Assembly (NCBI GenBank): GCA_050015275.1
Contig: JBEKBS010000009.1
Location: 719-64,718 of the forward strand
DNA from: Candidatus Aminicenantales bacterium
Lineage (GTDB): Bacteria; Acidobacteriota; Aminicenantia; Aminicenantales; Saccharicenantaceae
Reading direction: 5' to 3'
Length of the DNA: 64,000 nucleotides
The notes beneath the pieces were generated by a model. The model was given only the letters and a program-made list of their open reading frames with translations, searched no databases and had not been told where the DNA came from. The translations under genes and the position numbers were made by a program. Shown here piece after piece: positions 3,677 through 51,740 of this stretch. Position 1 is the first letter of the stretch; every line of letters begins with the position of its first letter.

Positions 3677-3688
3677 AGGAGATCGAAG

Positions 3689-4705: not shown

Positions 4706-4745
4706 ACGGGCGCTCGGGACGTGCCGCGGAGAGAGCCAAGATTAT

Positions 4746-5930
4746 ATGCGTCCGGAGGATAGAGAACACATGAAACCATTCCACTACCACCAACCAACGG
4801 AAATTCGGTTCGGCCGGGGCCGCGTGGCCGATATCGGGCCAGCCGTGGCCCGCGTCGGAAGCCGCTGTCTCCTCGTGACGGTCCCGGAGACCCCCGAGTT
4901 CGGGGGACTTTTCGGAAGGGTCAGACGTTTGCTGACCGAGGCCAAGATCCCCTTCGCCCATTTCGACGGCGTCATCCCCAATCCCACCTGCGACGTCGTG
5001 TCGGCGGGTGCCAGAATGGCGAGGGATTTCAAGGCCGACATCGTCCTTGGCGTCGGCGGCGGCTCGAGCATGGACACGGCCAAGGCGATCGCCGTCGAAG
5101 CCACCCACCCGGGCAGGGCCTGGGATTACCTGTTCTTCCGGGAAAGCCAGCCGACCGGCAAAACCCTGCCGATTGTCGCTGTCACGACTACCTCAGGAAC
5201 CGGATCCCATGTCACTCAGGTGGCCGTCATCACGAATCCGGAGGAAAAAAACAAATCCGCGCTGTTTCATCCGCTGCTCTACCCCCGGACGAGCATTGTC
5301 GATCCCGAGCTGATGCGTTCCGTGCCAGGCCGGGTGACGGCCACGACCGGGTTCGACGTATTTGCCCACGCCTTTGAGAGTTTTATCAACCCGAACGGAT
5401 CTCCTTATACGGACCTGATGGCTCTGGAGGCCCTGGCAATCGTCGCCAGACACCTCCCCTCCGCCGTCAAGGACGGAACGGACCTTGAGGCCAGAGAACA
5501 AATGGCGTGGGCCGATACGCTGGCCGGCCTCTGCATCGCCAACTCCGGTGTGACCCTCCCTCACGGCATCGGCATGGCTATCGGCGGACTCTATCCCCAT
5601 GTCGCTCACGGCGAAGCCCTGGCCGTGGTCTACCCGGCGATCCTGCGCTACAGTTTCCGGGCCGCCCCCGCTAAATTCGCCGCCGTGGGCCGGATCCTCG
5701 ATAAAAGAATTGCCGCCGAGACAGGGCTGAAGGCCGCCGAGAAATCGTGTGCCGCGATCGAGCGCTTCATGAAGAAGATCGGGATGGATCTCAGGCTCCG
5801 CGATCTCCACGTGCCCGAAGATGAGCTGGCCGCGCTCGCGATCCAATCTCTCGTGCTCCCGGACTACCGGAACCATCCCAAGGTCGCGACCCTTGATGAG
5901 GTCGCGCGGATCCTCGGCGAAAGCCATTGA
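4746..5930 (+). CDS. Iron-containing (group III) alcohol dehydrogenase, lactaldehyde reductase / 1,2-propanediol oxidoreductase-like
   Basis: The Fe-ADH fold shows a GGGSSMDTAKAIA motif and His-rich metal-site segments (HAFESF..., HGIGMAIGG). It is co-directional with the GH95 gene, consistent with L-lactaldehyde handling in fucose or rhamnose catabolism (inference). Confidence 0.8.
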   Translation: MRPEDREHMKPFHYHQPTEIRFGRGRVADIGPAVARVGSRCLLVTVPETPEFGGLFGRVRRLLTEAKIPFAHFDGVIPNPTCDVVSAGARMARDFKADIVLGVGGGSSMDTAKAIAVEATHPGRAWDYLFFRESQPTGKTLPIVAVTTTSGTGSHVTQVAVITNPEEKNKSALFHPLLYPRTSIVDPELMRSVPGRVTATTGFDVFAHAFESFINPNGSPYTDLMALEALAIVARHLPSAVKDGTDLEAREQMAWADTLAGLCIANSGVTLPHGIGMAIGGLYPHVAHGEALAVVYPAILRYSFRAAPAKFAAVGRILDKRIAAETGLKAAEKSCAAIERFMKKIGMDLRLRDLHVPEDELAALAIQSLVLPDYRNHPKVATLDEVARILGESH

Positions 5931-5938
5931 AGAAACAG

Positions 5939-8059
5939 ATGGCGCATCATGGGGGAGGAACCGTGAGCCAACGTCTGCTTTGGTCCCTTGTTGCGCTCTT
6001 CACCATTCTCTCGGGAGCGGTCGCTGAACTCCGGTCACCGGCCGCTCGAAAGGACCCGGTGGCCTTGTGGACGTTCGACGAAGGATCGGCGACCCGGAGG
6101 GCGCTCGATGCGGCGAGCGGCGTCCAGGATGCGATCGAGGGGCATTTCAAGCTTGTCACAGGGATCTCGGGAACCGGCCTTAGGTTCGACGGCTACACCA
6201 CCCGCGTCATCCGGAAAGGAAACCGGGCTCCGCGCCTGGGCGAGGCGTTCACGATGGAGGCCTGGGTCGCCCCGGCGGCGCTGCCGTGGAATTGGTGTCC
6301 CGTCCTGAGCCAGGAGAAGGACGGGCTTGTCGGCTATTCTTTCGGGATCGGGCCCCAAGGCGAACTCGGACTGAGGGTCTCTGTCCGCGGCGAATGGAAG
6401 GAGTGCCTGTCGCGCACCAGGATTCCCACGGGAAAATGGACACATCTCGCGGCCGTTTTCGACGCCCGGAGTGGGATCACATTGTTCCTTGACGGCCGGG
6501 AGGCGGGCTCGCTGGCTTTTCAGGGGATCCCGGCCTATGCCGGCGGCGCGGACCTCCTGATCGGGATGAACCCCGAAAAGAGAAAGCCGTCGCACATCGT
6601 CGGGTCGGGCGTCGGAACGGTCGAAGGCTGGTATGCGTTCGACGGGATCATGGATGAGATCAGGATCTTCGATCGAGCGCTTTCCGCCGAAGAGCTGAAG
6701 CAAACCTATGAGTCTGTGCGGCCGGCCTCAGCCCCCGACCTCGCCGTCCCCCGGCTGCCTTCCGGCCCTCAAGGGCCGGGGCGTTTCGGGGCTTATTATA
6801 CGAAGCTCCGGTACGACGACGGCTGGGATGCCCTGTGGCCCGTCGGTCCGGCCGCGGACATCGTCGTCGAGTTCGACGATTCGCCGGTCCGCGTCGTTTT
6901 CTGGCGGGGGACGCGCTACGGCCCGGCCTGGGTCATGGAGAACGGACAGTGGCTGGCCGACCAGAGCGTCGAAACATGGGACGACACCGAGGGCTGCTAC
7001 GAGCACATGGAAGACCCTCGCTGCCTCTATTCCCAAGTCCGGATCCTGGAATCGAGCGAGGCCCGGGCCGTGGTCCATTGGCGCTATGCCCCCGTGAGCT
7101 CGCGCAACCATTTCTGGCGGGTCGACGAGAAATCCGGCTGGGGATTATGGATGGACGAATATTACTATTTTTATCCCGACCTGACGGCCGTCCGCAAAGT
7201 GGTTTGGCCCGCAGAATTCCTGGGCCGGGAATCACCGTCCGAAATCCAGGAAACCATCCCCCTGTGCCAGCCCGGTCAAAGCTCCGAGGACGTCCTGAAC
7301 CGGGACGCCCTGACGCTTCTCAACCTGAAAGGGGAGAGCCAGGTGTACTCCTGGCCCGGAGAGATCAATGATCCTGACCACCGCCGGAAGCTCCAGCCCG
7401 AGAATCCGAATATCCAGGTCGTGAACCTGAAGTCGAAGGCCAAGCCCTTCATCCTCTTCGAACCGGGCTGCCAGATGAATGTTTATGTCGGGAGGGTCAG
7501 GGCCGGCGTCTCGAATTTCCCCGCGTACAACCACTTTCCGGTCTCTCTCCTGCCTTCGGACGGCCGGTACGCGGTGGCGGCCGACCGCGTGACGAGTTTT
7601 TCCATCTCCTACACCGATCCTCCGAGGCACGCCGGGCCCGAAGAGACCACTTGGGCGAGTTGGGTCTATGGCGTCACGGAGGGCCCGTACAGAGGCCTGG
7701 CGGCGCTCGGAAGGTCCTGGGCCCTAGCGCCGGCCTTGTCCGTTCAGGGTCCCGGCCTTCGTTCCGAAGGCTATGACCTCTCGCAGCGAGCCTATGTGCT
7801 TGCCTGCCCCCACCCAGGGAGGCCGGAGGCCGTGGTCTGCGAGCTCCAGGCTGCCCCGGAAAGGCCGGCGGTGAATATCGTGCTTTATCTCCGGGGCTGG
7901 GGCGACGGAGGCGCCGCGGTGACGGTGGATGGACAGCCCGTCGAGCGCGGCCCGGCCCTCAAGCTTGGATATGTGCGAACGATCGACGGGACCGATCTTG
8001 TGGTCTGGATCAAGAAGGAGTCGGTCCGGCCGGTCCGCATCGGCTTGGGGCCCCGATGA
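5939..8059 (+). CDS. Secreted uncharacterized protein with an N-terminal concanavalin A-like/LamG (Laminin_G_3) domain and a large C-terminal domain of unknown function
   Basis: A signal peptide follows MAHHGGGTVSQRLLWSLVALFTILSGAVA. The LamG-like block (about aa 40-260) has conserved Trp/Gly pattern ...WTFDEG...GLRFDGY...EAWV...KWTHLAAVFD...LFLDG. The remaining 450 aa have no family I can name. A TTG 12 nt upstream overlaps the Fe-ADH stop. Confidence 0.65.
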   Translation: MAHHGGGTVSQRLLWSLVALFTILSGAVAELRSPAARKDPVALWTFDEGSATRRALDAASGVQDAIEGHFKLVTGISGTGLRFDGYTTRVIRKGNRAPRLGEAFTMEAWVAPAALPWNWCPVLSQEKDGLVGYSFGIGPQGELGLRVSVRGEWKECLSRTRIPTGKWTHLAAVFDARSGITLFLDGREAGSLAFQGIPAYAGGADLLIGMNPEKRKPSHIVGSGVGTVEGWYAFDGIMDEIRIFDRALSAEELKQTYESVRPASAPDLAVPRLPSGPQGPGRFGAYYTKLRYDDGWDALWPVGPAADIVVEFDDSPVRVVFWRGTRYGPAWVMENGQWLADQSVETWDDTEGCYEHMEDPRCLYSQVRILESSEARAVVHWRYAPVSSRNHFWRVDEKSGWGLWMDEYYYFYPDLTAVRKVVWPAEFLGRESPSEIQETIPLCQPGQSSEDVLNRDALTLLNLKGESQVYSWPGEINDPDHRRKLQPENPNIQVVNLKSKAKPFILFEPGCQMNVYVGRVRAGVSNFPAYNHFPVSLLPSDGRYAVAADRVTSFSISYTDPPRHAGPEETTWASWVYGVTEGPYRGLAALGRSWALAPALSVQGPGLRSEGYDLSQRAYVLACPHPGRPEAVVCELQAAPERPAVNIVLYLRGWGDGGAAVTVDGQPVERGPALKLGYVRTIDGTDLVVWIKKESVRPVRIGLGPR

Positions 8060-8165
8060 GCGGATCTGAGTCATGCTATAATGAAAAATCCTTAAGCCTT
8101 CGGCCTGTCTCCGTCGCGCGGGTCCAGCGGCACCCGCGGTGGGCGGCGGATCGGGAGGAATCGCG

Positions 8166-9182
8166 ATGAAAAAGACGGTCCTTATCCTCGCCGTCGTCGT
8201 TTTGGCGGCCGTGGTCGTCGTCGTTAAAGTGACACGTACGAACGTGGGGGTCGAGCCCGTCTGCTGGTATGGCATGATGCCCCATCCCTACGTCAGCGAA
8301 GTCCGGAGCGGCGTCGAGCGGTTTGAACGGGAGACCGGCACCCGGGCGGCCAAGGTCGTCGGCCAGCAGTGGACCCAGGACAACGAGAATGTCAACGTCG
8401 AGGCCCTGTCCACCAAGGGATACAAGGCCTTCAGCGTCTATCCCGGGGACCCCGCCGGCGCCAATGCCCTTTTCGCCCAATTGAAAAGCCGCGGCCAGCT
8501 CGTGGTGGCCTATGGGGCGGAACCGGACCTGCCCACGCCCGTTCCCTTCACCGTGGCCACGGATATCAAGGCGGCGGCCATGACGGCCGCGGAGAAGCTC
8601 ATCGGACTCATGGACGGCCGGGGCCGGATTCTCAATGTCCTCGAGATGGTCACGGACATCAACACCAAGAAGCGCGACGAGGGCATCCGAGAGGTCGTGG
8701 CCCGGCATCCCGGCGTGGAAATCGTCCAGACGATTTCGGACATGACCCAGGTCAGCGAAGCCGTCACCAAGCTCCAGAGCGCCCTCGCGGCCCGGATGGA
8801 CGAGATCGACGGCATCATCACCACGGGCTACAACCCGACCATCGCCGCCGCGTCCGTTTTGACCGAATGGCACCGCGACCCCCGGCACAAGCGGATCCGC
8901 TTCATCGGGATCGACACCGGCCCGACCGTGCTCCAGGCGATCCGCGACGGCTTCATCGACGCCACGATCGCCCAGAACCCGCCCGGACACGGTTACCTTT
9001 CGGCCCGATTGCTCGGGCTGATGCTCGACGGGTGGACGCCCAAAGCCCCCTACCAGTTCATCAACGCGGGAATCGTCATCGTCACGAAGGACAATATCGA
9101 CACGTACGCCACCGAGGTCCGGAAGATCACCGACGGGATCGCCGCAGAGCTCCGGACGAAGTATCTCCAACCGCCGAAATAG
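8166..9182 (+). CDS. Sugar ABC transporter periplasmic substrate-binding protein (PBP type I, RbsB/LacI-like fold)
   Basis: MKKTVLILAVVVLAAVVVV gives a signal/anchor. The two-lobed PBP1 pattern resembles ribose/xylose-binding proteins. It is the first gene of an SBP-ATPase-permease operon. Confidence 0.85.
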   Translation: MKKTVLILAVVVLAAVVVVVKVTRTNVGVEPVCWYGMMPHPYVSEVRSGVERFERETGTRAAKVVGQQWTQDNENVNVEALSTKGYKAFSVYPGDPAGANALFAQLKSRGQLVVAYGAEPDLPTPVPFTVATDIKAAAMTAAEKLIGLMDGRGRILNVLEMVTDINTKKRDEGIREVVARHPGVEIVQTISDMTQVSEAVTKLQSALAARMDEIDGIITTGYNPTIAAASVLTEWHRDPRHKRIRFIGIDTGPTVLQAIRDGFIDATIAQNPPGHGYLSARLLGLMLDGWTPKAPYQFINAGIVIVTKDNIDTYATEVRKITDGIAAELRTKYLQPPK

Positions 9183-9197
9183 GAGCGCCGCCGATCC

Positions 9198-10706
9198 ATG
9201 CTCGAACTCAGGGGCATCCGCAAGCGCTTCCCGGGCGTCCAGGCGCTCGACGGCGTCAGCCTGCGGTTCGAGCCCAGAGAGATCCACGCCGTCGTCGGGG
9301 AGAACGGTGCCGGGAAGAGCACCCTCATCAAGGTCGTCACCGGCATCGAGCAGCCCGACGAGGGCGAAGTTCTTTATGACGGGGAGCGCCTCTGCTTTCG
9401 CGACTACCGCGACAGCCTGGCCCGCGGCATCGACGTCGTCAGCCAGGAGATCCAGATCATCCCCGAAAGCACCGTCGCCGAGAACATCATGCTCGACAAG
9501 CTCGTGACGGTCGGCCGGACAGGGATCATCGATTGGAAGGCCGTCGAAAGCGTCGCCCGGAGATACCTCGACCTGGTCGGGCTGGCCCTCCCCCCGGACG
9601 CCGTGATCAAGAACCTGAGCGCCGCCCACAAGCAGCTCGTTCAGATCGCCAAGGCGCTGGCCGCCGACGCGCGCGTCCTTTTTCTCGACGAGCCGACGAG
9701 CTCGCTGACCGAACACGAGGCGGGCAACCTGTTCCATATCCTCAGGGACCTCCGGGGCCGGGGCGTCACGATCATCTTCGTTTCCCACAAGGTCGAGGAA
9801 GTGTTCGCCTTGTGCGATGCGGTCAGCGTGCTCCGTGACGGCCGCCACGTCGGCACGCGGAGGATCGCCGGCCTCGAACCGGGGGAACTCGTCCGGATGA
9901 TGATCGGACGGGAGATCGTGGAGGCCCATCTGGGCCCGCTCGACGTCAACCGGGACCGCGAGATGCTGCGGGCCGAGAACGTGGTTCGCGAGGGTAAGGT
10001 CGATAATGTCAACTTCACCCTTTACGAAGGAGAGATCCTCGGCTTCTACGGTCTGGTCGGGGCGGGCCGCACCGAATTGGCCCGCGTCCTGATCGGCGAG
10101 GACCGGCTTGACCGCGGCGCAGTCTATGTCCGGGGGGAGAAGGCCTGCATCCAGAGCGTTGCGGACAGCCTGGAGCGCTACCGCATCGGCTACGTCACGG
10201 AGAACCGCAAGGAGGAGGGGCTGCTTCTCCAGTCCCCCGTCACGACCAACGTCACGATCACCGTCTGGCCCCGTCTTCGCAGCCGGCTGACCCGGGCCAT
10301 CAGCCGGGCCGGGGAGTTGGCATTGACGCGACGCATGATCCGGGCCCTGGACATCCGGACGACCGGGCCCTACCAGAAGACCGAGGACCTGAGCGGCGGC
10401 AACCAGCAGAAGATCTGCATTTCGAAGTGGCTGGCCGCCGATTGCGACATCCTGATCATCGACGAGCCGACGGTCGGGGTGGACATCGGGGCCAAGGAGC
10501 AGATCCACCAGCTCATCTGGGACCTGGCGAAGAACGGGCGGAAGGCGGTCATCCTCATCTCCTCGGACATGGCGGAGGTCATCAAGGTCGCCAGCCGGAT
10601 CCTCGTCTTCAGGGACCGCCGTGTCGTCGGCGAGATCACGGGCGTGGACGAGGAGACCAAGACCTACGGGCAGGTCAGTGCGGCCATCGGCCGGTATTTG
10701 CAGTGA
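9198..10706 (+). CDS. Sugar ABC transporter ATP-binding protein with duplicated ABC domains (RbsA/MglA type)
   Basis: Two Walker A sites (GENGAGKST and a second P-loop), two LSGG signature regions, Walker B sites and a D-loop. The product is 502 aa. Confidence 0.9.
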   Translation: MLELRGIRKRFPGVQALDGVSLRFEPREIHAVVGENGAGKSTLIKVVTGIEQPDEGEVLYDGERLCFRDYRDSLARGIDVVSQEIQIIPESTVAENIMLDKLVTVGRTGIIDWKAVESVARRYLDLVGLALPPDAVIKNLSAAHKQLVQIAKALAADARVLFLDEPTSSLTEHEAGNLFHILRDLRGRGVTIIFVSHKVEEVFALCDAVSVLRDGRHVGTRRIAGLEPGELVRMMIGREIVEAHLGPLDVNRDREMLRAENVVREGKVDNVNFTLYEGEILGFYGLVGAGRTELARVLIGEDRLDRGAVYVRGEKACIQSVADSLERYRIGYVTENRKEEGLLLQSPVTTNVTITVWPRLRSRLTRAISRAGELALTRRMIRALDIRTTGPYQKTEDLSGGNQQKICISKWLAADCDILIIDEPTVGVDIGAKEQIHQLIWDLAKNGRKAVILISSDMAEVIKVASRILVFRDRRVVGEITGVDEETKTYGQVSAAIGRYLQ

Positions 10707-10720
10707 GGAAGGACACGATC

Positions 10721-11728
10721 ATGGCAACGAAGACCACAGCGGAGAAGGACGGGGCGAAAACCGGGGCGGGGTTCGACCGGCGGGAAAGGATAAGCGGCCG
10801 GACCCTCGGGCTGGTCATCTCGACCGTCGTCCTCTTCGCGATCCTGGCGCTTCGTTCCCAAAGCTTCCTCAGCAGCTACACCATGTTCGTTATTTCGCGC
10901 CAGATGGCGTTCTATGTCCTGATCGCTCTGTCGCAGGCCTTTTGCCTTGTCGTGGGCCAGATGAGCCTGGCGGTCGGAGCGATCGGCAGCATCGCCACCG
11001 TTGTCCTCGGCCTGGGACTCGATACCTGGGGCCTCCCGGCAGGCCTGGCCGTGGCCCTGGCCCTGGGCGTCGGCGTTCTGGCTGGCTGGCTCAACGGCCT
11101 GATCATCACCCGCCTCAGGATCGATTCGTTCATCGTCACGCTGTCCATGATGTTCATCTTCATGGGTTTGCGCTCTGGCATCTCGGGCGGATCGCCCTAC
11201 AAGGTCTCAGAGTCATTTAGCGTCATCGGCCAGAAAAGCCTCTGGGGGGTCCCGTTCGTTTTCATTCTCGTGGTCCTTCTGCTGGGGCTTATCGGATTCA
11301 TGTACAGGAACACGGTCTTCGGCCGCCGGATGCTGGCCACGGGCGGCAACGCGGCCGCGGCCCGGCTGTCCGGGATCCATACCGACCGTATGGTCATCTC
11401 GGCCCACGTCCTGTCCGGGGCGTTCGCGGCGCTGGCGGCCGTCCTGTGGGCGTCCAAGCTCGGCTCGGCCGCCCCCGAAACCGGCGACGATTGGCTGATC
11501 ATCTCGTTCGCCGTAGCCATCATCGGCGGGACAGGGCTCAACGGCGGGATCATCTCCGCGCTCGGGATCTTCATGGGGTCGTCCATTTTCATGCTCATCA
11601 AACACGGGCTGGTCGAGGTCAAGGCGAACCCCTATTACGCCAACTCGTTTCTCGGCCTGCTCATCCTGCTGGCGATCGTCGTCGACCGGGTCCGGGAAAT
11701 TTATAGCGGCAAACAGAAAGGGAGATGA
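10721..11728 (+). CDS. Sugar ABC transporter permease (RbsC/branched-chain family)
   Basis: The ATG at 10721 is preceded by GAGGAAGG. About 9 predicted TM helices are present; the conserved permease loop has several possible placements. The long upstream extension in the ORF track (10427 onward) is out of context. Confidence 0.85.
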   Translation: MATKTTAEKDGAKTGAGFDRRERISGRTLGLVISTVVLFAILALRSQSFLSSYTMFVISRQMAFYVLIALSQAFCLVVGQMSLAVGAIGSIATVVLGLGLDTWGLPAGLAVALALGVGVLAGWLNGLIITRLRIDSFIVTLSMMFIFMGLRSGISGGSPYKVSESFSVIGQKSLWGVPFVFILVVLLLGLIGFMYRNTVFGRRMLATGGNAAAARLSGIHTDRMVISAHVLSGAFAALAAVLWASKLGSAAPETGDDWLIISFAVAIIGGTGLNGGIISALGIFMGSSIFMLIKHGLVEVKANPYYANSFLGLLILLAIVVDRVREIYSGKQKGR

Positions 11729-14229
11729 GTCTCATGAACAAACCGTCCGTGAAAAAAGCGATCTACGGCGCTGCGGCACTCCTCATCATCTTTTCGGCCT
11801 TCAGCCCGGCGGCCGGTTCCGCGCGCCGTGCCACCGATCCTTCGGATCCCCCAGCTCAGGCCTCAACGAAACTGCCTGTCCCCGAGCGCGGATTCATCAG
11901 CTCCGAGCCCGGCCTGACCTGGGAGCAGGGCCTTCTCAGCGGTAATGGGACCATCGGGGCGAGCGTCCTGGGCCGGCCGTTGGACGAGATCGTCGTCTTC
12001 AGTCACAAGCATCTGTTCATGCCCGAGCGCGCCCCACTCCTGCCGCCGGCCACCGCCACTCGGCTGTTCGAGATCCGCCGCCTCATCGACCGCGGGCTTT
12101 ACGCGCAGGCGGGGCAACTGGCGGAAGATGTCGCCGAACAGAAGGGATTCCTCTATCCCGACCCGCTCATGCCCGCTTTTGACCTCAGGGTCAAGATGGC
12201 CGCGGAAGGCGCCGTCACGGAATATCTGCGCTCGACGAATTTTGAGACGGGCGAGACGGCCGTTCACTGGTCCGATAACCGGGGGGTGTTCGAGCGCCGG
12301 CTTTTCGTCTCGCGCGCCGATGGGATCGCCCTGATGCAGATCATCGGGCCCGGCCCGGGCCGGGTGAACTGCCGGCTGGAGCTCACGCCCCGGGAGCCCA
12401 AGAACGAGAGGTTCAGGGCGAACGTCACCAACCTGGCCATGACCACCGATGCGTCCACCCTGACGTATCGCAACGGCTTCACCCACGCGTATCCCGGAAG
12501 CATCCAGGCGTTGGAAGGTGTCGCGCGGGTCATTGCCAAGAACGGCACGACGACGACGGACGGACCGGCCTTGGTGGTCACGGGCGCGGACGAAGTGCTT
12601 GTTTTCGTCGATATCAGGGTGCTCGACGACTTCGATAAATCCATGATCGAAGCGACGAAACGGGCCCTGGCCGGCCTGCCCCCGGTTTATAGCGAGCTTC
12701 TGCGGAGACACGAGAAAATCCACGGGGAGATGTTCCGGCGCATGCGGCTCGACCTGGGTGGCGGCCCGGACCGCGGCCTGACGTCGGAGCAGTTGCTGGC
12801 CAAGTCGACCGACGCCGAGCCCTCGAGGGCGCTCCTGGAAAAGGTCTTCGATGCCGGCCGCTACAATATCATCTCCAGCACGGGCGATCTGCCGCCGACC
12901 CTCCAGGGCGTCTGGGCCGGGACCTACGACCCGCCCTGGTCCAGTGATTTCACCCACAACGGGAACGTCCCCTCGGCCCTGGCCAGCATGCTCATGGGGA
13001 ACACGCCCGAACTCCTTCTGGCCTATACATCCTATATGGAGGGACTGGTCCCGTATCTCGAGGTCAACGCGAAGATGATCTTCGGGGCTCGGGGGATCGC
13101 TCTGCCGTCACGGTCGACCACGAACGGCTACAATAACGCGTTCGAAGCGGATTTCCCCGGACAGTTCTGGGTCGCCGGCGCCCCCTGGGCGGCCCATTTT
13201 TTTTATGACTATTGGCTCTACACGGGCGACCGGAAGTTCCTGGCTGAACATGCCCTGCCTTTCATGGAAAAGGCGGCCCTCTTCTTCGAAGATTATCTTT
13301 ACGAAGGCCCGGACAGGAAATACGTGTTCAGCCCGACCCAGTCGCCCGAGAACTCGCCCAGCAACACCGGGTCCCAGACGACGTTCAACGCCACGATGGA
13401 CGTGGCGGCGGCCAAGGAACTTCTCCGGAATACGGTGGCCGCCTCCCGGGAACTGAACGTCAACAAGGACAAGATCCCCGTCTGGGAGAAGATGCTGGCC
13501 AAGATGCCGGAGTACCTGATCAACGAGGACGGCGCGGTCCGGGAATGGCTGACTCCCAAGCTCGCGGACAATTACGATCACAGACACAATTCCCAACTTT
13601 ATGCCCTGTTTGACGGGATGCCGGATGAGATCGCCAAGAACCCGGAGCTCAGGGCCGCTTTCAAGCGGGCCATCGAGCTCAAGCTCGAGCGCTACTGGGG
13701 CCATTGGCAGAAACAGGGGGGCTTCATGTCCTTCGGCCTGGTCCAGCTCGGGCAGGCCTCGGCCAGCCTGGGAGAAGCGGACCTGGCCTATCGTTGCCTG
13801 GTGCCGCTCCTCAACCGCTATTGGCTGCATAATCTGGCGTCCATGCACAATGCCAAGGAGCTCTTCAACACGGACATCAGCGGGGGTCTGCCGGCTGTCC
13901 TCATCAAGATGCTCGTGGCCTCGGATCCCGGCGTCGTCCGTCTCTTCCCAGCGCTTCCCTCGGCCTGGCCGTCGGGGACGATCGAAGGGGTCCTTTGCCG
14001 CGGCCAGATCGAGATCACGCGCCTGTCGTGGGACGGCGGAAAGATCCAAGCCGCGTTCAAGACGGCCAGGGCCCAGGACATCTCGCTCTATGCGCCGGGG
14101 AAGATCGAGAGCATTGCCGTGAAGACCGGCAAGGCGGCCATCCAGAACCTGAATGACGCAAGGGCACGCAAGCTGTCGCTGCCGGCGGGTCAGGAGGTTT
14201 TGGTCGAACTCGAGATCGGCGGGCGCTGA
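11725..14229 (+). CDS. Divergent GH95-family glycoside hydrolase (second paralog), secreted
   Basis: The start overlaps the permease stop (ATGA). Its signal-like N-terminus is followed by blocks clearly homologous to GH95: TWEQGLLSGNGTIGASVLG, and GDLPPTLQGVWAG...GNVPSAL compared with [13 protein letters not shown] of the first GH95. It is 834 aa. An alternative start lies at 11734. Confidence 0.75.
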   Translation: MSLMNKPSVKKAIYGAAALLIIFSAFSPAAGSARRATDPSDPPAQASTKLPVPERGFISSEPGLTWEQGLLSGNGTIGASVLGRPLDEIVVFSHKHLFMPERAPLLPPATATRLFEIRRLIDRGLYAQAGQLAEDVAEQKGFLYPDPLMPAFDLRVKMAAEGAVTEYLRSTNFETGETAVHWSDNRGVFERRLFVSRADGIALMQIIGPGPGRVNCRLELTPREPKNERFRANVTNLAMTTDASTLTYRNGFTHAYPGSIQALEGVARVIAKNGTTTTDGPALVVTGADEVLVFVDIRVLDDFDKSMIEATKRALAGLPPVYSELLRRHEKIHGEMFRRMRLDLGGGPDRGLTSEQLLAKSTDAEPSRALLEKVFDAGRYNIISSTGDLPPTLQGVWAGTYDPPWSSDFTHNGNVPSALASMLMGNTPELLLAYTSYMEGLVPYLEVNAKMIFGARGIALPSRSTTNGYNNAFEADFPGQFWVAGAPWAAHFFYDYWLYTGDRKFLAEHALPFMEKAALFFEDYLYEGPDRKYVFSPTQSPENSPSNTGSQTTFNATMDVAAAKELLRNTVAASRELNVNKDKIPVWEKMLAKMPEYLINEDGAVREWLTPKLADNYDHRHNSQLYALFDGMPDEIAKNPELRAAFKRAIELKLERYWGHWQKQGGFMSFGLVQLGQASASLGEADLAYRCLVPLLNRYWLHNLASMHNAKELFNTDISGGLPAVLIKMLVASDPGVVRLFPALPSAWPSGTIEGVLCRGQIEITRLSWDGGKIQAAFKTARAQDISLYAPGKIESIAVKTGKAAIQNLNDARARKLSLPAGQEVLVELEIGGR

Positions 14230-14319
14230 CCATGCCCGGGGCCGCCGACGTTCTGGCCCCGCAGAGCAGGTCGTGCTGGCATGATTTCTTGTGGTGATAA
14301 AAAACGTCGCCGAGGAGAC

Positions 14320-16095
14320 ATGATGAAACGCTTCCTGATTTCGTTTGTTCCCGGCCTGATCATTTTCGCTCTCGCCGGATGCTCGCGGGGGGTCACCGAG
14401 AGGACCGTCGCCTACACGTCCCGGCCGTGGCCGCCGCGGGTTTGGAAATCCGAAGCGCCCCCCGGCTGTCCCTTCGAACCCTCCCGGGACATCCGGGGTA
14501 TCGCCTTCACCCACAAATCAGCGACGTACACGGATGCCGATACTTGGTATCCGTCCTGGGCCTCCGACGGCAACATGTATAGCGGCTGGACGGACGGTGA
14601 GATCGGCGAGGAGTCCTGCCATTCGAGCGGCGGGGCGAAGGCTCGCACGGGCAACGCCAAGATCGCCGGCGACGATCCCTTGAATCTGACGGTTACCTCT
14701 CTCGGGTCAGAACCGGCCTCGGCCCTGCCGTACGGCGGACGCTATCCCAGCGCCAACCTCGTGCACAACGGGGTCTGGTATTACGGGACGTACTGCGTCG
14801 ACTTCGACCTGTCCAAACCTGAATACCGGGACCTCTACAGTTGGGCCATCTGCGGCCCGGTGCCGGGATTCCGGATCTCGTTGGACTACGGGAAGACCTG
14901 GATCCCGAGCCCGCTTTCGCCCGAAAAGCCACTCTTCCCGGAATCGGGGAAGGACGGGCGTCAGGTCAAGATGGGGACGCCCCATTTCGTGGACTTCGGA
15001 TGCAACCTGGAGCATTCCCCGGACGGGAAGGCCTACCTCGTCGGCCACGGCGCCCTAGACGTGGACCCCACGCCGCGCATCGCCGGGAACAGCTGGATCG
15101 CAGGCGACGCGGTCTACCTCGCGCGCGTAACTCCCAGCCCGAAAAACATCAACGATGTCAGGACTTACGAATTTTTCGCCGGCCGGGGGACTGACGGGCG
15201 TCCCGTCTGGTCCCGGAATTTCACGGACATCCGGCCGCTCCTGACCTGGGACGACCACATGGGCTGCGCGACGATAACCTATGATGCCCCGCTCCGCAAA
15301 TATCTGATGTGCGTCACCGACGGTTGGCCGGGCGTCGAGGACATGAACTCATACATCCTGGAAGCGGACGAGATCACAGGACCCTACAGGATGGTCACAT
15401 ACATGAACAAGTTCGGCCGGCAGGGCTACTTCCTGCACTTCCCGTCGAAGTTCATCAGCGCCGACGGCCGGACAGCGTGGCTATCCTACTCCGCGAACTT
15501 CCACAAAGCCTACTTCGGCAACCGGACGGCGGCCGATCCGATGGGCAGCCGCTACGCCTGGACTCTTCAGGAGGTCAAACTCCTGGGCGGGACCGGGGAA
15601 ATGTCCGGCCCGACGGAGAGCGATATGCCGCCGCTGGATCCGCTCAAGAACGAGAATAATATCGCCCTTCGCGCCAGGGTCAACGTCTCGTCGGTCCACA
15701 AGAAAAACAAGCCTTTCACTGAGCTGATGGAATATTTTGGCGAGGGGGCCGTAGACGGGATCGTCGACCTGAACACCGGGATCAACGCGCACGAATGGGT
15801 GAGCGGCGGCGAGCGGGAGACGGCCATGATCCGCCTCAGCTGGGATTCGCCGCAGACGGTGCGACGGGTCTGGCTTTTCGACCGTCCGGATCCGACCGAC
15901 CACATCACCTCGGGCATGCTGCTTTTCAGCGACGGGAGCACCATCCGCGTGGGTGAGCTTCCGAACGACGCGAGATCCTGCAAGGAGCTGAGCTTCCCGC
16001 CCAAGTCCGTCACCTGGGTCGTGTTCGTCGTCGATTCGGTTTCTAGAGAAACGGCCAACGTTGGCCTTGCCGAGATGGCGGTCTTCAGGGACTGA
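14320..16095 (+). CDS. Lipoprotein with a DUF4185-like beta-propeller domain (putative glycoside hydrolase) plus an extra C-terminal beta-sandwich domain
   Basis: SD AGGAGAC precedes ATG 14320. A lipobox LAGC is present. Conserved blocks DTWYPSWASDGNMYSGWTDGE, NLVHNGVWYYGTYC and GTPHFVDFG are shared with the paralog at 50308..51669. The DUF4185 assignment is from memory and unverified. Confidence 0.65.
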   Translation: MMKRFLISFVPGLIIFALAGCSRGVTERTVAYTSRPWPPRVWKSEAPPGCPFEPSRDIRGIAFTHKSATYTDADTWYPSWASDGNMYSGWTDGEIGEESCHSSGGAKARTGNAKIAGDDPLNLTVTSLGSEPASALPYGGRYPSANLVHNGVWYYGTYCVDFDLSKPEYRDLYSWAICGPVPGFRISLDYGKTWIPSPLSPEKPLFPESGKDGRQVKMGTPHFVDFGCNLEHSPDGKAYLVGHGALDVDPTPRIAGNSWIAGDAVYLARVTPSPKNINDVRTYEFFAGRGTDGRPVWSRNFTDIRPLLTWDDHMGCATITYDAPLRKYLMCVTDGWPGVEDMNSYILEADEITGPYRMVTYMNKFGRQGYFLHFPSKFISADGRTAWLSYSANFHKAYFGNRTAADPMGSRYAWTLQEVKLLGGTGEMSGPTESDMPPLDPLKNENNIALRARVNVSSVHKKNKPFTELMEYFGEGAVDGIVDLNTGINAHEWVSGGERETAMIRLSWDSPQTVRRVWLFDRPDPTDHITSGMLLFSDGSTIRVGELPNDARSCKELSFPPKSVTWVVFVVDSVSRETANVGLAEMAVFRD

Positions 16096-18392
16096 TGGAT
16101 AAGATCCGCTCGTTCTTCCGGGTCGAAACCCCGTCGATGAAAACTCCCTGGATCATGCTCGTCAGGATCGGCGCATTCATCGTTCTCACAACTGCCGCAT
16201 TGCCGATGAATCCCGCCCTGATTCCGTCGGCCCATCCAAGCCCGGCTCTGAGGCAGGCAGGGAAACCCTCCGCGGAGGCATCTTCGGGCCTGAAGGATTA
16301 TGGATTGAGAGATTATATCGGTCTCTCCAAGGGCCTGCCTCATTCGGAGAATAAGGGCTGGAAGCTTGTCTGCCGCATGCCATATAACTGCCATTTTCAG
16401 CCCTGGATCCAGCTGGAAGCCCCTGCGGGCCAGGTGATCCGCTTCAACTCCAGCAACCCGCTCGTCCTCTATCTGACACCCACGGAGACATATACGACCG
16501 TTTCGGGCGAGCAAAGCCACGAGGCGAAGAATTGGGTCAGCGGGGAGGGCGCGATTTATACCATTCCTGCCGGCGTGACCGTGAAGGCCGTCAAATACCG
16601 CGAAACGGGATACGACACGACCTTGGCCGGTTCGTTCGAGTGCAACGACGCCGACTTCAATATCCTCTGGAAAAAAGCGGCCAGGACCGTCTATGTCTGC
16701 ATGAGAGACCATTTCTACGACTGCCCCGACCGGGAGAGGGTCGGATTCTGGGGCGATGGGACGCCTGAACTCGGCCAGTGCTTTTATGCCTTCGATACGG
16801 CCTCCCATCGGCTGTGCAAAGAGCTGGTCCTGAGGAAACTCGAGCCCGATTTCTATCCCGGTCAACACCTGGAATTTCTCGGCGAATACGGGCTGTGGTT
16901 CTATTACCTGCACACCGGAGATCTGGATTCCATAAAAGCCGTCTATGACGCGACCAAGGCCTTTCTTTTGGAAACCTATAAGTTCGGCAATCCCAGGCAA
17001 TGGTTCGATTGGGGAAAGGATACAAAGGATATCCCCGTCATCGAGACCTGCTTTTATTATATTGACCTCAAGACCCTGAAGAAGATGGCCAAAGCGACCG
17101 GGCATGACGCGGATATCCCGGCCATCGAGGCAAGGCTCGAGGCCATCAAAAGCACGTTTGATGACAAATATTGGAAAGGGAACTGTTATAGGTCGGCGAA
17201 CGCCCTCGCGCCGGACGACCGGGCGAATGCCATGGCGGTCAATTCCGGACTGGCGGACCGCTCCAAATGGGCTGCGATCCACGACATGGTGCTGACCAAG
17301 ATGACGAATGCCAGCTGTTTTTTCGACCGGTGGGTCTTCGAGGCCCTGTGCACCATGGGAAAACAGGACACGGCCTTGCTCAGAATGTCCAGTCGATATA
17401 AGACCATGATCCCGTGCAGCTTCACGACCTTGTGGGAACATTACGACCGGTGGTGGGCGACAGGCCTCAACGCCTTCGACGAGGGCTCATCGCTCAACCA
17501 CGGCTGGAATCCCCCCGTCCTCAATCTCTCCCAAACCATTGCCGGGATTGCCCCGGAGGCGCCCGGGTGGACGACGTACCATGTGTTGCCCAAAGAGGCC
17601 TTTCTGACGACGATCAAGGTCGTCGTTCCCTCCATCAAGGGCAAGATCACGGTCCTCATGAAGAAAACCCCCAGGGAATATTCCCTGAGGCTGACGTCCC
17701 CCCCGTACACCCAGGCCATCGTCGGCATTCCCAAGAGTTCATTCTTGAAGCTGGATGCCATCAAGGTCAACGGGACGACCGTTTGGAGTGGAGCTTACCG
17801 CGGCGGGGTGGAAGGTATTTCCTGGAACGGAGAGGATGACGAATATATCAAATTCGAAGCGAACCCGGGGACATGGTCCTTGACCGGTTTGGGCACGTTG
17901 CCGATAAGCTCGCCGAAGCCGTTGCCGCCGCCGCCGGCGGATGATATCCCGCTGGAGAAGAAATCCTGGATCGCCTCCGCTTCGGTCGAAGACGGCACGT
18001 TTCTCTTCAGCGGAGATAAGATTCCTGTCGATGTTTCGGCCGCCAATGCCATCGACGGGGATCATTGGACCGGCTGGCGCGACATGACGAGAACGCAACA
18101 CAGCGGACAATGGTTCCAAGTCGATATGAGGCGGGCGGAAACGTTTTCCAAGATCGCTCTCGACAACACTTGGGCTTTGTGGGATTCTCCCAAGGCCTAT
18201 TCAGTTTCGGTCTCCAGGGACGGGATCCACTGGGGAAGCCCGATCGCCTCGGGATCGGGGCAGTTGGGACTGACGACCATCATCTTCCCCGCTCAGACCG
18301 CGCGTTATATCAGGATCACCCAGACCGGCGCGGATGCCACGTACCATTGGTCGATCTATGAACTGGATGTCTATCGGGAAAAACCGCATTAA
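16095..18392 (+). CDS. Short-form GH78-like alpha-L-rhamnosidase (six-hairpin glycosidase) with a C-terminal F5/8 type C discoidin (CBM32-like) domain
   Basis: The motif HFYDCPDRERVGFWGDG matches the GH78 catalytic-domain signature (DCPQRDERLGWTGD). The C-terminal 150 aa show a discoidin pattern (...WTGWRD...QWFQVDM...YSVSVSRDGIHW...ARYIRIT...YELDVY). The ATG overlaps the previous stop by 1 nt. Confidence 0.7.
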   Translation: MDKIRSFFRVETPSMKTPWIMLVRIGAFIVLTTAALPMNPALIPSAHPSPALRQAGKPSAEASSGLKDYGLRDYIGLSKGLPHSENKGWKLVCRMPYNCHFQPWIQLEAPAGQVIRFNSSNPLVLYLTPTETYTTVSGEQSHEAKNWVSGEGAIYTIPAGVTVKAVKYRETGYDTTLAGSFECNDADFNILWKKAARTVYVCMRDHFYDCPDRERVGFWGDGTPELGQCFYAFDTASHRLCKELVLRKLEPDFYPGQHLEFLGEYGLWFYYLHTGDLDSIKAVYDATKAFLLETYKFGNPRQWFDWGKDTKDIPVIETCFYYIDLKTLKKMAKATGHDADIPAIEARLEAIKSTFDDKYWKGNCYRSANALAPDDRANAMAVNSGLADRSKWAAIHDMVLTKMTNASCFFDRWVFEALCTMGKQDTALLRMSSRYKTMIPCSFTTLWEHYDRWWATGLNAFDEGSSLNHGWNPPVLNLSQTIAGIAPEAPGWTTYHVLPKEAFLTTIKVVVPSIKGKITVLMKKTPREYSLRLTSPPYTQAIVGIPKSSFLKLDAIKVNGTTVWSGAYRGGVEGISWNGEDDEYIKFEANPGTWSLTGLGTLPISSPKPLPPPPADDIPLEKKSWIASASVEDGTFLFSGDKIPVDVSAANAIDGDHWTGWRDMTRTQHSGQWFQVDMRRAETFSKIALDNTWALWDSPKAYSVSVSRDGIHWGSPIASGSGQLGLTTIIFPAQTARYIRITQTGADATYHWSIYELDVYREKPH

Positions 18393-18417
18393 TCAGGGGC
18401 CGGAAGGAGAACCGGGG

Positions 18418-20670
18418 ATGATACGAACGGTGAATGGCCGACGGGCGATTCTCGGTGCGATGATCCTATCAGCCTTGGGCTTGGTCCCGATGGCCGGCGA
18501 TCCCCCGCACCCCTCGAAATCCGTTCCCTCCGGTGGGGCTACGTTCTACGTTTCGAGCTCCGGCCTTGACAGTAATCCCGGCACGAAATTGGCGCCGTTC
18601 GCCACCCTGGCCCGGGCCCAGCAGGCGCTGCGGGCATGGAAAAAGACGGGCTCCGGCCCGGCCGTCGTCGAGGTGGGCCAAGGCACTTATGCTCTTGACC
18701 GCCCGCTGGTGTTCTCGCCCGAGGACTCCGGATCGGCGGCGTCCCCCGTCGTCTTTGCCGCCGCCCCGGGCGAGCGCGTGACCATCAGCGGGAGCTGCAC
18801 CCTGGATTGCCGCTGGAAGCCATACCGGGACGGGATCCTGATGTGCGACCTGCCCGCCGTCAAACAGGGGGGGGTCCGTTTTTCGCAGCTCTTCGTCAAC
18901 GGCAAACGCCAGACTCTGGCCCGATTTCCAAACCGGGACGATTCGAAACCCGGGCGAAGCGGCTATATCCACCCCGTGGGCCCGATCCCGGACGGCCTTC
19001 CTGACCCGAAGCCCGGAGAGAACGACGACATGACCTTCTCCGGCGGCGCCCCGCGGGGCATCCTCTTCGATTCCGCGTCGTTCACGGCCAAACGCTGGGC
19101 CCGGCCGGAAGAGGCGGTTATTCATATTTTCCAGGGCTGGGAGTGGGGCAACCTGCAATGGCGGCTAAAGGCGATCGATTATGACGGACGGGCGATCTGG
19201 TTCGGCGCGGGCGGGTTCCAGATGGGCGCCAAATATTTCGAGGACCCGGCCAAGATCGAAGCGGACTCGCGCTTTTTTATCGAGAATGTCTTCGAGGAGC
19301 TTGACGCTCCGGGGGAATGGTATTTGGATGTCAAAGCCGGGATCCTCTATGACTTGCCAGAGCCGGGAGTCGATATGGCGGTTGCGCGCGTCGAGGCCCC
19401 GCTCCTTGAGCAGCTCGTCCGGTTCGCCGGGACGCAGGACGCCCCGGTCCGCCACATCGCCATCGAGGGCTTCCACCTGACGCAGACGGCCTCGACGTTC
19501 CTCGAGCCCTACGACATTCCATCCCTGAGCGACTGGGCCATCCACCGCGGCGGGACCGTCTTTCTGGAGGGGACGCGGGACTGCGCGGTCAGGAACTGCT
19601 GGTTTGACGCCGTCGGCGGCAACGCCGTCTTCATCAGCAACTACAACCGGAACGCCACCGTCACCGGGTGCAAGTTCACGGAAACAGGCGACAGCGCGGT
19701 CTGCCTCGTCGGGACCCTGGGGGCCACGAACGGCACCCGCCGCGCCTTCCCCTACGAATGCACGGTGTCCAACAACCTGATCCACGACTGCGGGGTCTTC
19801 GGCAAGCAGATCGCGGGTGTCTACATCTCCAGGGCTAAGCGCATCACAGCCGCCCACAACACCATTTACAACATGCCCCGGGCGGGCATCTGCATCGGCG
19901 ACGGCACGTGGGGCGGCCACGTCATCGAGTTCAATCACATCCACGACACCGTCCGCGAAACGGGCGATCACGGACCGTTCAACGCCTGGGGCCGCGAGCG
20001 GTTCTGGAGTCTGATTCAATCCCACTCCGAATACAGCGTCCACCGGAGCCTCGAGGCCGGCGCCGTCAAGATCGACGCCATGGAGCCGGTCACCCTGCGG
20101 AACAATTTTTTCGAGGACCGCTCGGGCTGGGGCCTGGACCTCGACGACGGCGCCTCCAACTACGAGATCTACAACAATATTTCCAAGGGCATCAGCATCA
20201 AGCTGCGCGAGGGGGCCTACCGGACCATCTATAACAACATCTGGGTCGATAGTAACGTCGCGCCCTGCTTCCATGTGGGCAACGAGGACAACCATGACCG
20301 TTATTTCCGGAACATCACGGTGATGGCCCACGACGACGTCTATTCGATCATCGCCCCGCCGGCGCGGGGCCCGTGGCTCGAGGAGCTCGACCATAACTGC
20401 CTCTTCAGCCGGTCCGGTCGATTCACGGCCCGGATCAGCCAGATGCGCGGCGAAACCGGACCCGAAGGCGGATCCCGCCTGGTCGATCTCGAGGAATGGC
20501 GCAAACTCGGGTTCGACCGGAACTCGGTCTTCGCCGATCCCCTTTTTATCGACCCGGCCGGGAACGATTACCGGGTGCGGCCCGAATCGCCGGCCCTGCG
20601 GCTTGGTTTCAAAAATTTCGAGATGGGGCTTTGGGGGATCACCAAAGAATTTCCCCCTGAACTTCGCTGA
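18418..20670 (+). CDS. Secreted right-handed parallel beta-helix (pectin lyase-fold) protein, putative polysaccharide hydrolase or lyase
   Basis: SD GGAAGGAG precedes ATG 18418, followed by a signal peptide. Repeated beta-helix rungs are present (NAVFISNYNRNATVTGCKF, NNLIHDCGVFG, AHNTIYNMPRAGICIGDG, EFNHIHDTVRETGDHGPFNAWG). Confidence 0.7.
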   Translation: MIRTVNGRRAILGAMILSALGLVPMAGDPPHPSKSVPSGGATFYVSSSGLDSNPGTKLAPFATLARAQQALRAWKKTGSGPAVVEVGQGTYALDRPLVFSPEDSGSAASPVVFAAAPGERVTISGSCTLDCRWKPYRDGILMCDLPAVKQGGVRFSQLFVNGKRQTLARFPNRDDSKPGRSGYIHPVGPIPDGLPDPKPGENDDMTFSGGAPRGILFDSASFTAKRWARPEEAVIHIFQGWEWGNLQWRLKAIDYDGRAIWFGAGGFQMGAKYFEDPAKIEADSRFFIENVFEELDAPGEWYLDVKAGILYDLPEPGVDMAVARVEAPLLEQLVRFAGTQDAPVRHIAIEGFHLTQTASTFLEPYDIPSLSDWAIHRGGTVFLEGTRDCAVRNCWFDAVGGNAVFISNYNRNATVTGCKFTETGDSAVCLVGTLGATNGTRRAFPYECTVSNNLIHDCGVFGKQIAGVYISRAKRITAAHNTIYNMPRAGICIGDGTWGGHVIEFNHIHDTVRETGDHGPFNAWGRERFWSLIQSHSEYSVHRSLEAGAVKIDAMEPVTLRNNFFEDRSGWGLDLDDGASNYEIYNNISKGISIKLREGAYRTIYNNIWVDSNVAPCFHVGNEDNHDRYFRNITVMAHDDVYSIIAPPARGPWLEELDHNCLFSRSGRFTARISQMRGETGPEGGSRLVDLEEWRKLGFDRNSVFADPLFIDPAGNDYRVRPESPALRLGFKNFEMGLWGITKEFPPELR

Positions 20671-41277: not shown

Positions 41278-41518
41278 GATGAAACCTCCCGGCCAAATCA
41301 TACCCGAATCGCTGTCCTTTTACAAAGGAACGTTGAGGAGGATAGCCTCCATTCTCATGGAGGTTGAGCTCGGGGGATTCCCTATTGAAGTTATCTTGTC
41401 TTTTGATGGGCCGTCTGGTATAACCGCTGACAGTGGGATATCGAGCCGATTCCGGACCCGCCCTGCGCCCCGTATCTTCCGGAATATCGTCCTGGTCCCG
41501 GAGTCCAAGGAGTCCGTC

Positions 41519-51669: not shown

Positions 51670-51713
51670 GGTTTCCTCCTGCGCCGCGGGAGCATTCCCT
51701 GACTGGGCCTGAT

Positions 51714-51740
51714 ATATTATAGGGGCCCCCTATTTGTCAA
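51714..51740 (-). promoter_or_regulatory. Near-consensus sigma70-type promoter with a palindromic operator-like element in the spacer
   Basis: Read on the minus strand: TTGACA-AATAGGGGGCCCCTA-TAATAT. The -35 is a perfect TTGACA. The palindrome ATAGGGG(G/C)CCCCTAT overlaps the spacer and -10, about 45 nt upstream of the TTG start of the DUF4185 paralog. Confidence 0.4.

Follow-up and report, generated by a model that had tools for sequence, protein, structure and literature searches.

Two open reading frames (ORFs), ORF A and ORF B, encode proteins with a shared beta-propeller core in a 64,000-nucleotide stretch of genomic DNA from a Candidatus Aminicenantales bacterium (GenBank assembly GCA_050015275.1, contig JBEKBS010000009.1, positions 719 to 64,718 of the forward strand; G+C content ~62%), referred to below as the window. 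This raises the question to which protein family the two products belong, whether they are enzymes and on which substrate they would act. Our analysis leads us to regard ORF A and ORF B, with a probability of about 0.62, as secreted retaining glycoside hydrolases (GHs) that belong to a large sister family of GH183 and arose by an ancient duplication.

That the two proteins are paralogs with different domain contexts, as a first-pass annotation made from the sequence alone had claimed, was borne out by BLASTP, which aligned them with 228 identical residues out of 390 (58%, E 7e-160). The long sequence blocks quoted there, DTWYPSWASDGNMYS[GP]WTDGE, LVHNGVWYYGTYC and G[TS]PHFVDFG, are all found in both ORFs, and a tblastn search of the window revealed no third copy. 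ORF A carries a C-terminal DUF7402 module which Pfam does not find in ORF B, and the same difference runs through the family: DUF7402 is present in 126 of 154 A-like sequences and missing from 159 of 178 B-like sequences. Since the family is split in this way and a single 1.95-Mb Aminicenantes contig holds orthologues of both ORF A (P0013) and ORF B (P0132), we conclude that the duplication is old. The A and B types differ in their localisation and in the appended module, not in the catalytic residues.

An AlphaFold2 (AF2) model of ORF B, calculated from a 54-sequence alignment, is all-beta with a predicted local distance difference test score (pLDDT) of 86.7 and a predicted template modelling score of 0.85. 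When the model was compared with the Protein Data Bank (PDB) using Foldseek, the GH183 enzyme EndoMA1 (8ic1/8hhv) was the top match (E 2e-13), and the best fold matches were the five-bladed enzymes of the families GH183, GH43 and GH32; by its likeness to the solved GH183 structures the core is predicted to be a five-bladed beta-propeller. Sialidases were matched at an E of about 1e-5 and a template modelling (TM) score of about 0.3.

DUF4185 is the CAZy family GH183, which consists of retaining endo-alpha-D-arabinofuranases acting on mycobacterial arabinogalactan and lipoarabinomannan and inactive on D-galactan (PMC10115798; PMC10509167); the statement in the first-pass annotation that DUF4185 includes mycobacterial exo-galactofuranosidases was therefore mistaken. 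In EndoMA1 Asp33 is the nucleophile and Asp51 the acid/base, and Glu243 is essential (PMC10509167); the DUF4185 domain of the Gordonia phage GMA6 lysin has been characterised biochemically as well (PMC10115798). In our profile–profile alignments the low-confidence extension of a match with an overall probability of 17% placed Asp89 of ORF B (in ADTW) on the Asp of the GH183 motif TDLG and Asp107 (in WTDG) on the Asp of FGD. The spacing of the pair is 18 residues both in the family and in GH183, the same as between the two EndoMA1 aspartates. In a set of 386 family proteins reaching down to about 31% identity, Asp89 is kept in 345 of 348 and Asp107 in 347 of 349. That the GH183-type mechanism has been retained is the simplest explanation for the exact spacing together with the near-invariance of the pair. 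Hydrolysis would proceed with retention of the anomeric configuration through these two first-blade aspartates, Asp74 (nucleophile) and Asp92 (acid/base) in ORF A and Asp89 and Asp107 in ORF B, in the arrangement shown experimentally for the GH183 endo-alpha-D-arabinofuranases. The outcome that had been named beforehand as speaking against glycosidases, a non-catalytic BNR lectin, was not what we found, since both candidate catalytic aspartates are ~99% conserved among the 386 members; judged from their sequences ORF A and ORF B look catalytic, not lectin-like.

On the sequence level the relationship to GH183 is much harder to see. The Pfam profile of DUF4185 (PF13810, profile length 309) has a gathering score of 39.5 bits; neither ORF A nor ORF B matched it at E<=1, and with no match in NCBIfam for either protein the direct assignment of the propeller core by these databases was discarded. 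Eleven homologues reached 24.2–35 bits (E about 1e-6 to 1e-8), covering only positions 116–271 of the 309. The precomputed DUF4185 flag found on many homologues turned out to be sub-threshold on re-scanning, and the GMA6 lysin domain, scanned as a control, scored 196.6 bits. The only Pfam signal in the core of ORF B is a single BNR Asp-box (SRDFGKTW, residues 196–203), which is itself sub-threshold (E 0.034, 14.5 vs 27 bits). Pfam gave no significant match to GH43 (PF04616), and the proteins do not qualify as members of that family; nor do they resemble the six-bladed GH33-type BNR sialidases with their several Asp-boxes, having one sub-threshold Asp-box and five-bladed best folds. Designed 'Cake' propellers and antibody chains brought up by the PDB sequence searches were rejected as chance matches to the DG-x-x-YS repeat.

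For profile–profile comparison a narrow (A1) and a diverse (A3, down to 31% identity) alignment of the family were compared by hhalign with an alignment of bona fide GH183 sequences (A2), seeded with the GMA6 lysin (KR063280) and extended by mycobacterial relatives. The program was informative in local mode with low mact, whereas the global mode gave meaningless end-to-end alignments. A1 matched A2 with an E of 0.02 and A3 matched A2 with an E of 0.0014 (probability 17%), the confident core of the alignment being the Asp-box and the segment 'I-x-L-x-R-V-x-P..I-x-D..Y'. GH183 itself is highly divergent, as the A2 profile finds EndoMA1 merely at E 6.6e-6. We conclude that the family of ORF A and ORF B is DUF4185-like in a remote sense that becomes visible by structure or profile–profile methods, and that its kinship to GH183 is real but remote. 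The label DUF4185-like given in the first-pass annotation is thus right only as far as fold and probable mechanism are concerned; by the sequence criterion of Pfam and CAZy it fails, PF13810 being unmatched by either protein and its threshold unreached by the homologues.

Each of the two queries has at least about 3,000 homologues among 8,000 scored candidates, almost all of them unnamed, and among the matches listed the closest ones for both queries come from Candidatus Aminicenantes metagenome-assembled genomes (MAGs). When 1.84 billion representatives were searched exhaustively with phmmer, 1,273 clusters (50% identity) passed E<=1e-3 and 274 passed E<=1e-30; the genome stretches with a confirmed relative number at least 587. 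No paper dealing with the family turned up in a literature search on DUF7402, on GH183 and on new five-bladed retaining GH families. Proteins of the family occur joined to CBM6, CBM35, F5/8C, PA14 or dockerin domains, and some contain as many as three DUF7402 copies. Fusions to GH29 and neighbouring genes were counted in 80 genome loci gathered with A1 and containing 71 family ORFs; the members in these loci belong to Aminicenantes, Acidobacteriota, Planctomycetota and Bacteroidota. In 5 of the 71 ORFs a GH29 alpha-L-fucosidase region is followed by the GH183-like domain in a single reading frame, and in two of these (L068 and L030) Pfam confirmed a complete GH29 together with Fucosidase_C. 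The fusions are found in Aminicenantes-type MAGs and in one Prolixibacteraceae (Bacteroidota) MAG, and they provide a ready clue to substrate choice.

The coordinates of the features are collected in Table 1.

Table 1. Features of ORF A, ORF B and their surroundings in the window, and GH29 fusion ORFs of the family in other genome loci (given as locus:positions)
Feature	Position	Strand	Basis
ORF A, 591 aa; predicted lipoprotein with GH183-like five-bladed propeller core and C-terminal DUF7402 module	14320..16095	+
ORF A signal peptide with lipobox L-A-G-C, Cys21	14320..14382	+	motif read from translation
ORF A propeller core, aa 35-422, region common to ORF B	14422..15585	+	BLASTP
ORF A Asp74 codon, candidate nucleophile (= ORF B Asp89, EndoMA1 Asp33)	14539..14541	+	profile alignment, conservation, PMC10509167
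ORF A Asp92 codon, candidate general acid/base (= ORF B Asp107, EndoMA1 Asp51)	14593..14595	+	profile alignment, conservation, PMC10509167
ORF A DUF7402 domain, aa 447-589, presumed carbohydrate-binding module	15658..16086	+	Pfam E 2.8e-36; AF2; Foldseek
TGATG junction, ORF A stop / GH78-like start, 1-nt overlap	16093..16097	+	sequence
Co-directional gene run with ORF A	1034..20670	+	Pfam
ORF B, 453 aa; predicted secreted, single-domain (signal peptide and propeller core)	50308..51669	-
ORF B Asp89 codon, candidate nucleophile	51403..51405	-	profile alignment, conservation
ORF B Asp107 codon, candidate acid/base	51349..51351	-	profile alignment, conservation
Promoter-like TTGACA (51740-51735) and TATAAT (51721-51716), GGAGGA Shine-Dalgarno (51679-51674), before ORF B TTG	51674..51740	-	sequence inspection, consensus match only
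GH29 fusion ORFs	L068:8360-11272, L030:8360-11107, L044:8441-11152, L063:171-2843, L081:3337-7302

The longest reading frame of ORF A starts at 14281, but a GGAGA Shine–Dalgarno sequence precedes the ATG at 14320, and the exact 591-aa product of this start is among the called proteins of 10 Joint Genome Institute metagenome contigs. The closest homologues, from Candidatus Aminicenantes MAGs, are 85–94% identical. The N-terminus, MMKRFLISFVPGLIIFALAGC, contains the putative lipobox MMKRFLISFVPGLIIFALAG-C21, which on motif inspection fits the pattern [LVI][ASTVI][GAS]C of signal peptidase II substrates. The 1-nt overlap between the stop codon of ORF A and the start of the following GH78-like gene suggests that the two are translationally coupled.

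The DUF7402 module (PF24135) of ORF A is matched over the full profile (1–133 of 133) with 125 bits against a gathering score of 27, and its AF2 model is a beta-sandwich with a pLDDT of 91.2. A lipoprotein with an additional C-terminal beta-sandwich, as the first-pass annotation described ORF A, agrees with both the lipobox and this domain. In Foldseek the top matches were fucose-binding F-type lectin modules (3LEI, 2J1R) and CBM32 domains with E values of 3e-8 to 1e-6; the two kinds are nearly indistinguishable at TM scores of about 0.7. DUF7402 has the galactose-binding-like beta-sandwich fold in common with F-type lectins/CBM47 and CBM32 (discoidin, F5/8C), but merely 13–20% identity to them. 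Inspection of its sequence did not reveal the canonical F-lectin fucose motif His...Arg-x-Asp-x4-Arg/Lys as clearly present or conserved, and the DUF7402 regions of homologues give weak matches to Pfam F5/8C too. Judging from the modelled fold we presume that DUF7402 is a carbohydrate-binding module (CBM) or similar to one.

The gene run containing ORF A consists, in order, of genes for GH95, a Zn-dependent and a FucO-like Fe-dependent alcohol dehydrogenase (Zn-ADH, Fe-ADH), a LamG_3 protein, a sugar ABC transporter (solute-binding protein, ATPase, permease), a further GH95 (11725–14229), ORF A itself, a GH78-like rhamnosidase with F5/8C module (16095–18392) and a beta-helix/GH141-like protein. 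Pfam identified both direct neighbours, in agreement with the earlier placing of ORF A between a GH95-like and a GH78-like gene, and the gene order is repeated on the independent contigs L003–L005. Beyond the run GH39-like, GH10 and GH63-like genes lie on the opposite strand, and farther on a GH29 fucosidase gene adjoins an M24 Xaa-Pro peptidase gene (33429–34814).

Two side observations concern this part of the window. The LamG_3 (concanavalin-like) protein (710 aa, 5927–8059, plus strand) reappears near family members in L075, L086, L088 and L092 (there twice), often accompanied by Zn-ADH, Fe-ADH or PfkB genes. Long antisense ORFs of 468–810 aa cover real genes at 8076–10508, 15567–17441 and 13108–14514 (all minus strand); a Pfam scan of the 810-aa one gave no match, and they are spurious, as is common where the G+C content is high.

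ORF B starts with TTG, and the GGAGGA ahead of it is a strong ribosome-binding site. The spacer between its TTGACA and TATAAT elements is short (13 nt); an overlapping TAATAT would give 15 nt. Downstream on the same strand, after a gap of 36 nt, follows a gene for an Asp-protease/PDZ protein, and an M24 peptidase (52575–53756), a POT peptide transporter, RhaT and a sugar ABC system are also encoded in the flanks. On the other side lies the gene of a 1607-aa multidomain glycosidase (43574–48397, plus strand), whose N-terminus is GH43-like at a sub-threshold score (28.7 vs 32.2 bits) and whose C-terminus is a melibiase (GH27/36-like) with a beta-sandwich; Pfam matches nothing in the roughly 1,000 residues that separate the two. 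The first-pass annotation had located ORF B in a peptide/protease array, which holds for the Asp-protease/PDZ, M24 and POT genes but leaves out RhaT, the sugar ABC system and the giant glycosidase. The giant glycosidase, RhaT and POT are kept beside ORF B in the related genomes L008, L010 and L011.

In the same region there are two ORFs without Pfam match, one of 733 aa (41270–43471, plus strand) and one of 256 aa (51812–52582, minus strand). Counterparts of both, with 74–91% identity, accompany ORF B orthologues of Aminicenantes (L007), and one of the 733-aa ORF is found in L011 as well. Very weak tblastn matches (E about 0.1–0.2) link the 733-aa ORF to the propeller cores.

The neighbourhoods of homologues from other species were analyzed as well. 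Around ORF A-type homologues (X) the gene orders are SusD, GH95, DPPIV, Ser-dehydratase, M24, X, Zn-ADH, Amidohydro_2, AKR, SASA, GH78+F5/8C in L087 and L091; DPPIV, SDH, X, OCD-like, FucU, SSF, Zn-ADH, PfkB, Fe-ADH in L089; the same without SDH and FucU, followed by sulfatase and LamG_3, in L088; X, FucI-like isomerase, GH29 around P0085; and LamG_3, PfkB, ROK, sulfatase, anSME, X and, farther on, M24 and LamG_3 in L092. A single-domain homologue retrieved with ORF B lies in an F. gilvum cluster with GH38, GH95, GH3, GH92 and GH31, and another one, closer to ORF B, adjoins a GH140 apiosidase. The sugars on which FucI, FucU, FucO-like Fe-ADH, the AKR-type dehydrogenase and the Amidohydro_2 lactonase act, L-fucose, L-galactose and D-arabinose, are related in their stereochemistry, and D-arabinofuranose (D-Araf), the glycon of GH183, has the same configuration as this group. 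The presence of fucose-group catabolic genes beside family members is therefore suggestively coherent with the configuration of the GH183 glycon.

ORF A-type genes repeatedly share an operon with genes of proline-specific peptidases (DPPIV/S9, M24 with AMP_N), namely in L087, L089, L091 and partly L088, the neighbourhoods of P0097, P0084, P0112 and P0114; these operons also hold L-serine dehydratase (not L088), an OCD/mu-crystallin-like gene and fucose-group catabolic genes. The recurrence of peptidase and fucose-catabolism genes in one operon hints at a glycopeptide-utilisation pathway. The window repeats the pairing of glycosidase and peptidase, with M24 beside GH29 and with M24 and POT beside ORF B.

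Taken as a whole, the gene context of ORF A and ORF B points to glycoconjugates bearing fucose and rhamnose, which is more specific than the rhamnogalacturonan or arabinogalactan-type substrates that the first-pass annotation had put forward as a guess. ORF A would be tethered to the membrane as a lipoprotein and would hold the glycan with its DUF7402 module of CBM32/F-type-lectin-like fold. It would be co-transcribed, and probably translationally coupled, with the genes for GH95, the GH78-like and GH141-like proteins, the sugar ABC importer and the Zn-ADH/Fe-ADH pair, which is of the kind used in the catabolism of L-fucose-group sugars. ORF B would be secreted in free form; it has a promoter-like element to itself and is placed near peptidases, peptide and rhamnose transporters and the giant glycosidase. 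The weakest step of this scheme is the substrate, which probably differs from that of GH183; the linkage attacked most likely belongs to a glycan or glycopeptide rich in fucose/rhamnose. The glycon may be D-arabino/L-galacto-configured, for example D-Araf or an L-Fuc/L-Gal-configured furanoside, an idea based on context and general sugar chemistry, as the sugar in the −1 subsite of GH183 and the sugars of the neighbouring catabolic genes have this stereochemistry in common.

As a tentative reading, less likely than not, the proteins may form a new GH family, or a subfamily split deeply from the rest of GH183, whose specificity would be new to this scaffold: possibly a retaining hydrolase of an L-fucose/L-galactose/D-arabinose-configured, perhaps furanosidic, linkage which acts together with GH29 and GH95 fucosidases on fucosylated proline-rich glycoproteins or complex pectic/algal glycans. 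The DPPIV, M24, Ser-dehydratase and OCD-like neighbours bring to mind the hydroxyproline-rich glycoproteins of plants (extensins and arabinogalactan proteins) as substrate; none of the beta-L-arabinofuranosidase families GH121, GH127, GH142 and GH146 was seen nearby, and the idea therefore stays a speculation.

How firmly a retaining hydrolase of a GH183 sister family can be claimed depends on several observations that weigh against it. PDB sequence searches with the single protein and with the profiles A1 and A3 returned no GH183 chain (E<=10 for the profiles), and the hhalign probability of the GH183 link is just 2–17%. The placement of the Asp pair relies on the low-confidence extension of the profile alignment. 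The sources name the members 'hypothetical protein' and rarely 'DUF4185 domain-containing'. Most homologues of Planctomycetota and Acidobacteriota lie among housekeeping genes (FtsY, PFK, DnaA, ThrRS) with no conserved carbohydrate-active enzyme (CAZyme) partner, so the fucose/rhamnose context is lineage-restricted; the only conserved neighbours across the 80 loci reflect lineage-specific housekeeping synteny (FtsY, PFK, aminotransferase, ThrRS, DnaA), and when 113 genes next to the long or fused members were pooled and scanned with Pfam, no CAZyme partner was dominant. Finally, Glu243 of EndoMA1 has no evident counterpart in the hhalign alignment; its approximate position, given a 5-residue numbering offset and a low-confidence part of the alignment, falls on Cys/Val. 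The lack of an evident counterpart of this glutamate, along with the highly conserved polar residues Glu217, His233, Asp236, His254, Arg280 and Glu359, for which the GH183 mechanism offers no explanation, would suit propeller enzymes of another chemistry (an inverting exo-furanosidase or pyranosidase, a polysaccharide lyase or a metal-dependent deacetylase) that resemble GH183 in their scaffold only. In view of the exactly spaced, near-invariant aspartates we consider this unlikely.

A similarly low probability is given to genuine but divergent GH183 endo-alpha-D-arabinofuranases, which would harvest D-arabinan from actinobacterial wall debris (arabinogalactan, lipoarabinomannan) or from D-arabinose-containing lipopolysaccharide or pilin glycans, the neighbouring 'fucose' genes really catabolising D-arabinose via the same pathways. 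The closest solved structure is indeed a GH183 enzyme, the Asp pair is conserved, and the weak hit of the mycobacterial/phage profile to EndoMA1 shows how much divergence GH183 can accommodate; the FucI-like, FucU, PfkB, Fe-ADH, AKR and Amidohydro_2 neighbours belong to pathways that also process D-arabinose. Yet the family stays below the DUF4185 threshold that all listed CAZy GH183 members reach, and the phyla in which it was found do not include the Actinobacteria. The two characterised D-arabinan clusters are accompanied by GH172 (DUF2961) or GH116 exo-arabinofuranosidase partners (PMC10115798, PMC10509167), neither of which was present among the Pfam-scanned genes of the window or in the homologue neighbourhoods examined, and the GH29 fusion and the GH95, GH78 and GH141-like neighbours indicate L-fucose/L-rhamnose glycans instead. 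Very improbable, finally, are non-catalytic carbohydrate-binding or BNR/Asp-box propellers serving as lectins or scaffolds. Such proteins would account for a BNR Asp-box as the sole Pfam signal in the ORF B core and for the lack of a match to a curated enzyme family, but GH183 also has a single Asp-box, aligned with that of the family, the nearest structures are all enzymes, the fusions to CBMs and GH29 are those of catalytic modules, and the conservation of the candidate catalytic aspartates would be left without a reason.

We thus prefer a secreted retaining glycoside hydrolase of a GH183 sister family, which is common in Aminicenantes, Acidobacteriota and Planctomycetota, abundant phyla of the carbon cycle about which little is understood. 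Should it be shown to be GH183-like but to act on another substrate, the fold would no longer be tied to the D-arabinan of the mycobacterial cell wall; models of the turnover of fucose/rhamnose-rich glycans or glycoproteins would gain a missing activity, and genome annotators a handle on these genes. If the more specific proposal of a fucosylated target is true, the GH29 fusions and the operons with fucose-group and Xaa-Pro peptidase genes mark an unrecognised glycopeptide-degradation pathway that is widespread in peat, soil and sediment bacteria. The family is not a new kind of system and should be of moderate interest to specialists in CAZymes and the carbon cycle.

Among known systems the family shows a partial likeness to GH43 and clan GH-F (arabinofuranosidases, xylosidases, arabinanases). 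The nucleophile position of GH183 is topologically equivalent to the general base of GH43 (PMC10509167), and Asp74/Asp89 would by extension occupy the GH43 general-base position; unlike the mechanism proposed here, that of GH43 is inverting and employs a Glu as the acid and a pKa-modulating Asp at other positions. The closest known system is GH183, represented by EndoMA1 (8HHV/8IC1), Rv3707c/AraH2 of M. tuberculosis (8AN0), DgGH4185a/b of D. gadei and the GMA6 lysin domain. Like these enzymes the family is secreted, has the Asp-box S-x-D-x-G-x-x-W and the 'I-x-L-x-R-V-x-P...I-x-D...Y' segment and carries near the N-terminus of the domain the near-invariant Asp pair, which in the sequence alignments appears to coincide with nucleophile and acid/base, and like EndoMA1 its members frequently have a C-terminal beta-sandwich module. 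It differs from GH183 in its low identity to EndoMA1 (14–17%), in a core of ~390 aa compared with the 309 positions of the DUF4185 profile, in its GH29 fusions and its GH95, GH78 and fucose-catabolism neighbours in place of GH172/GH116 partners, and in its occurrence in Aminicenantes, Acidobacteriota, Planctomycetota and Bacteroidota, not in Actinobacteria.

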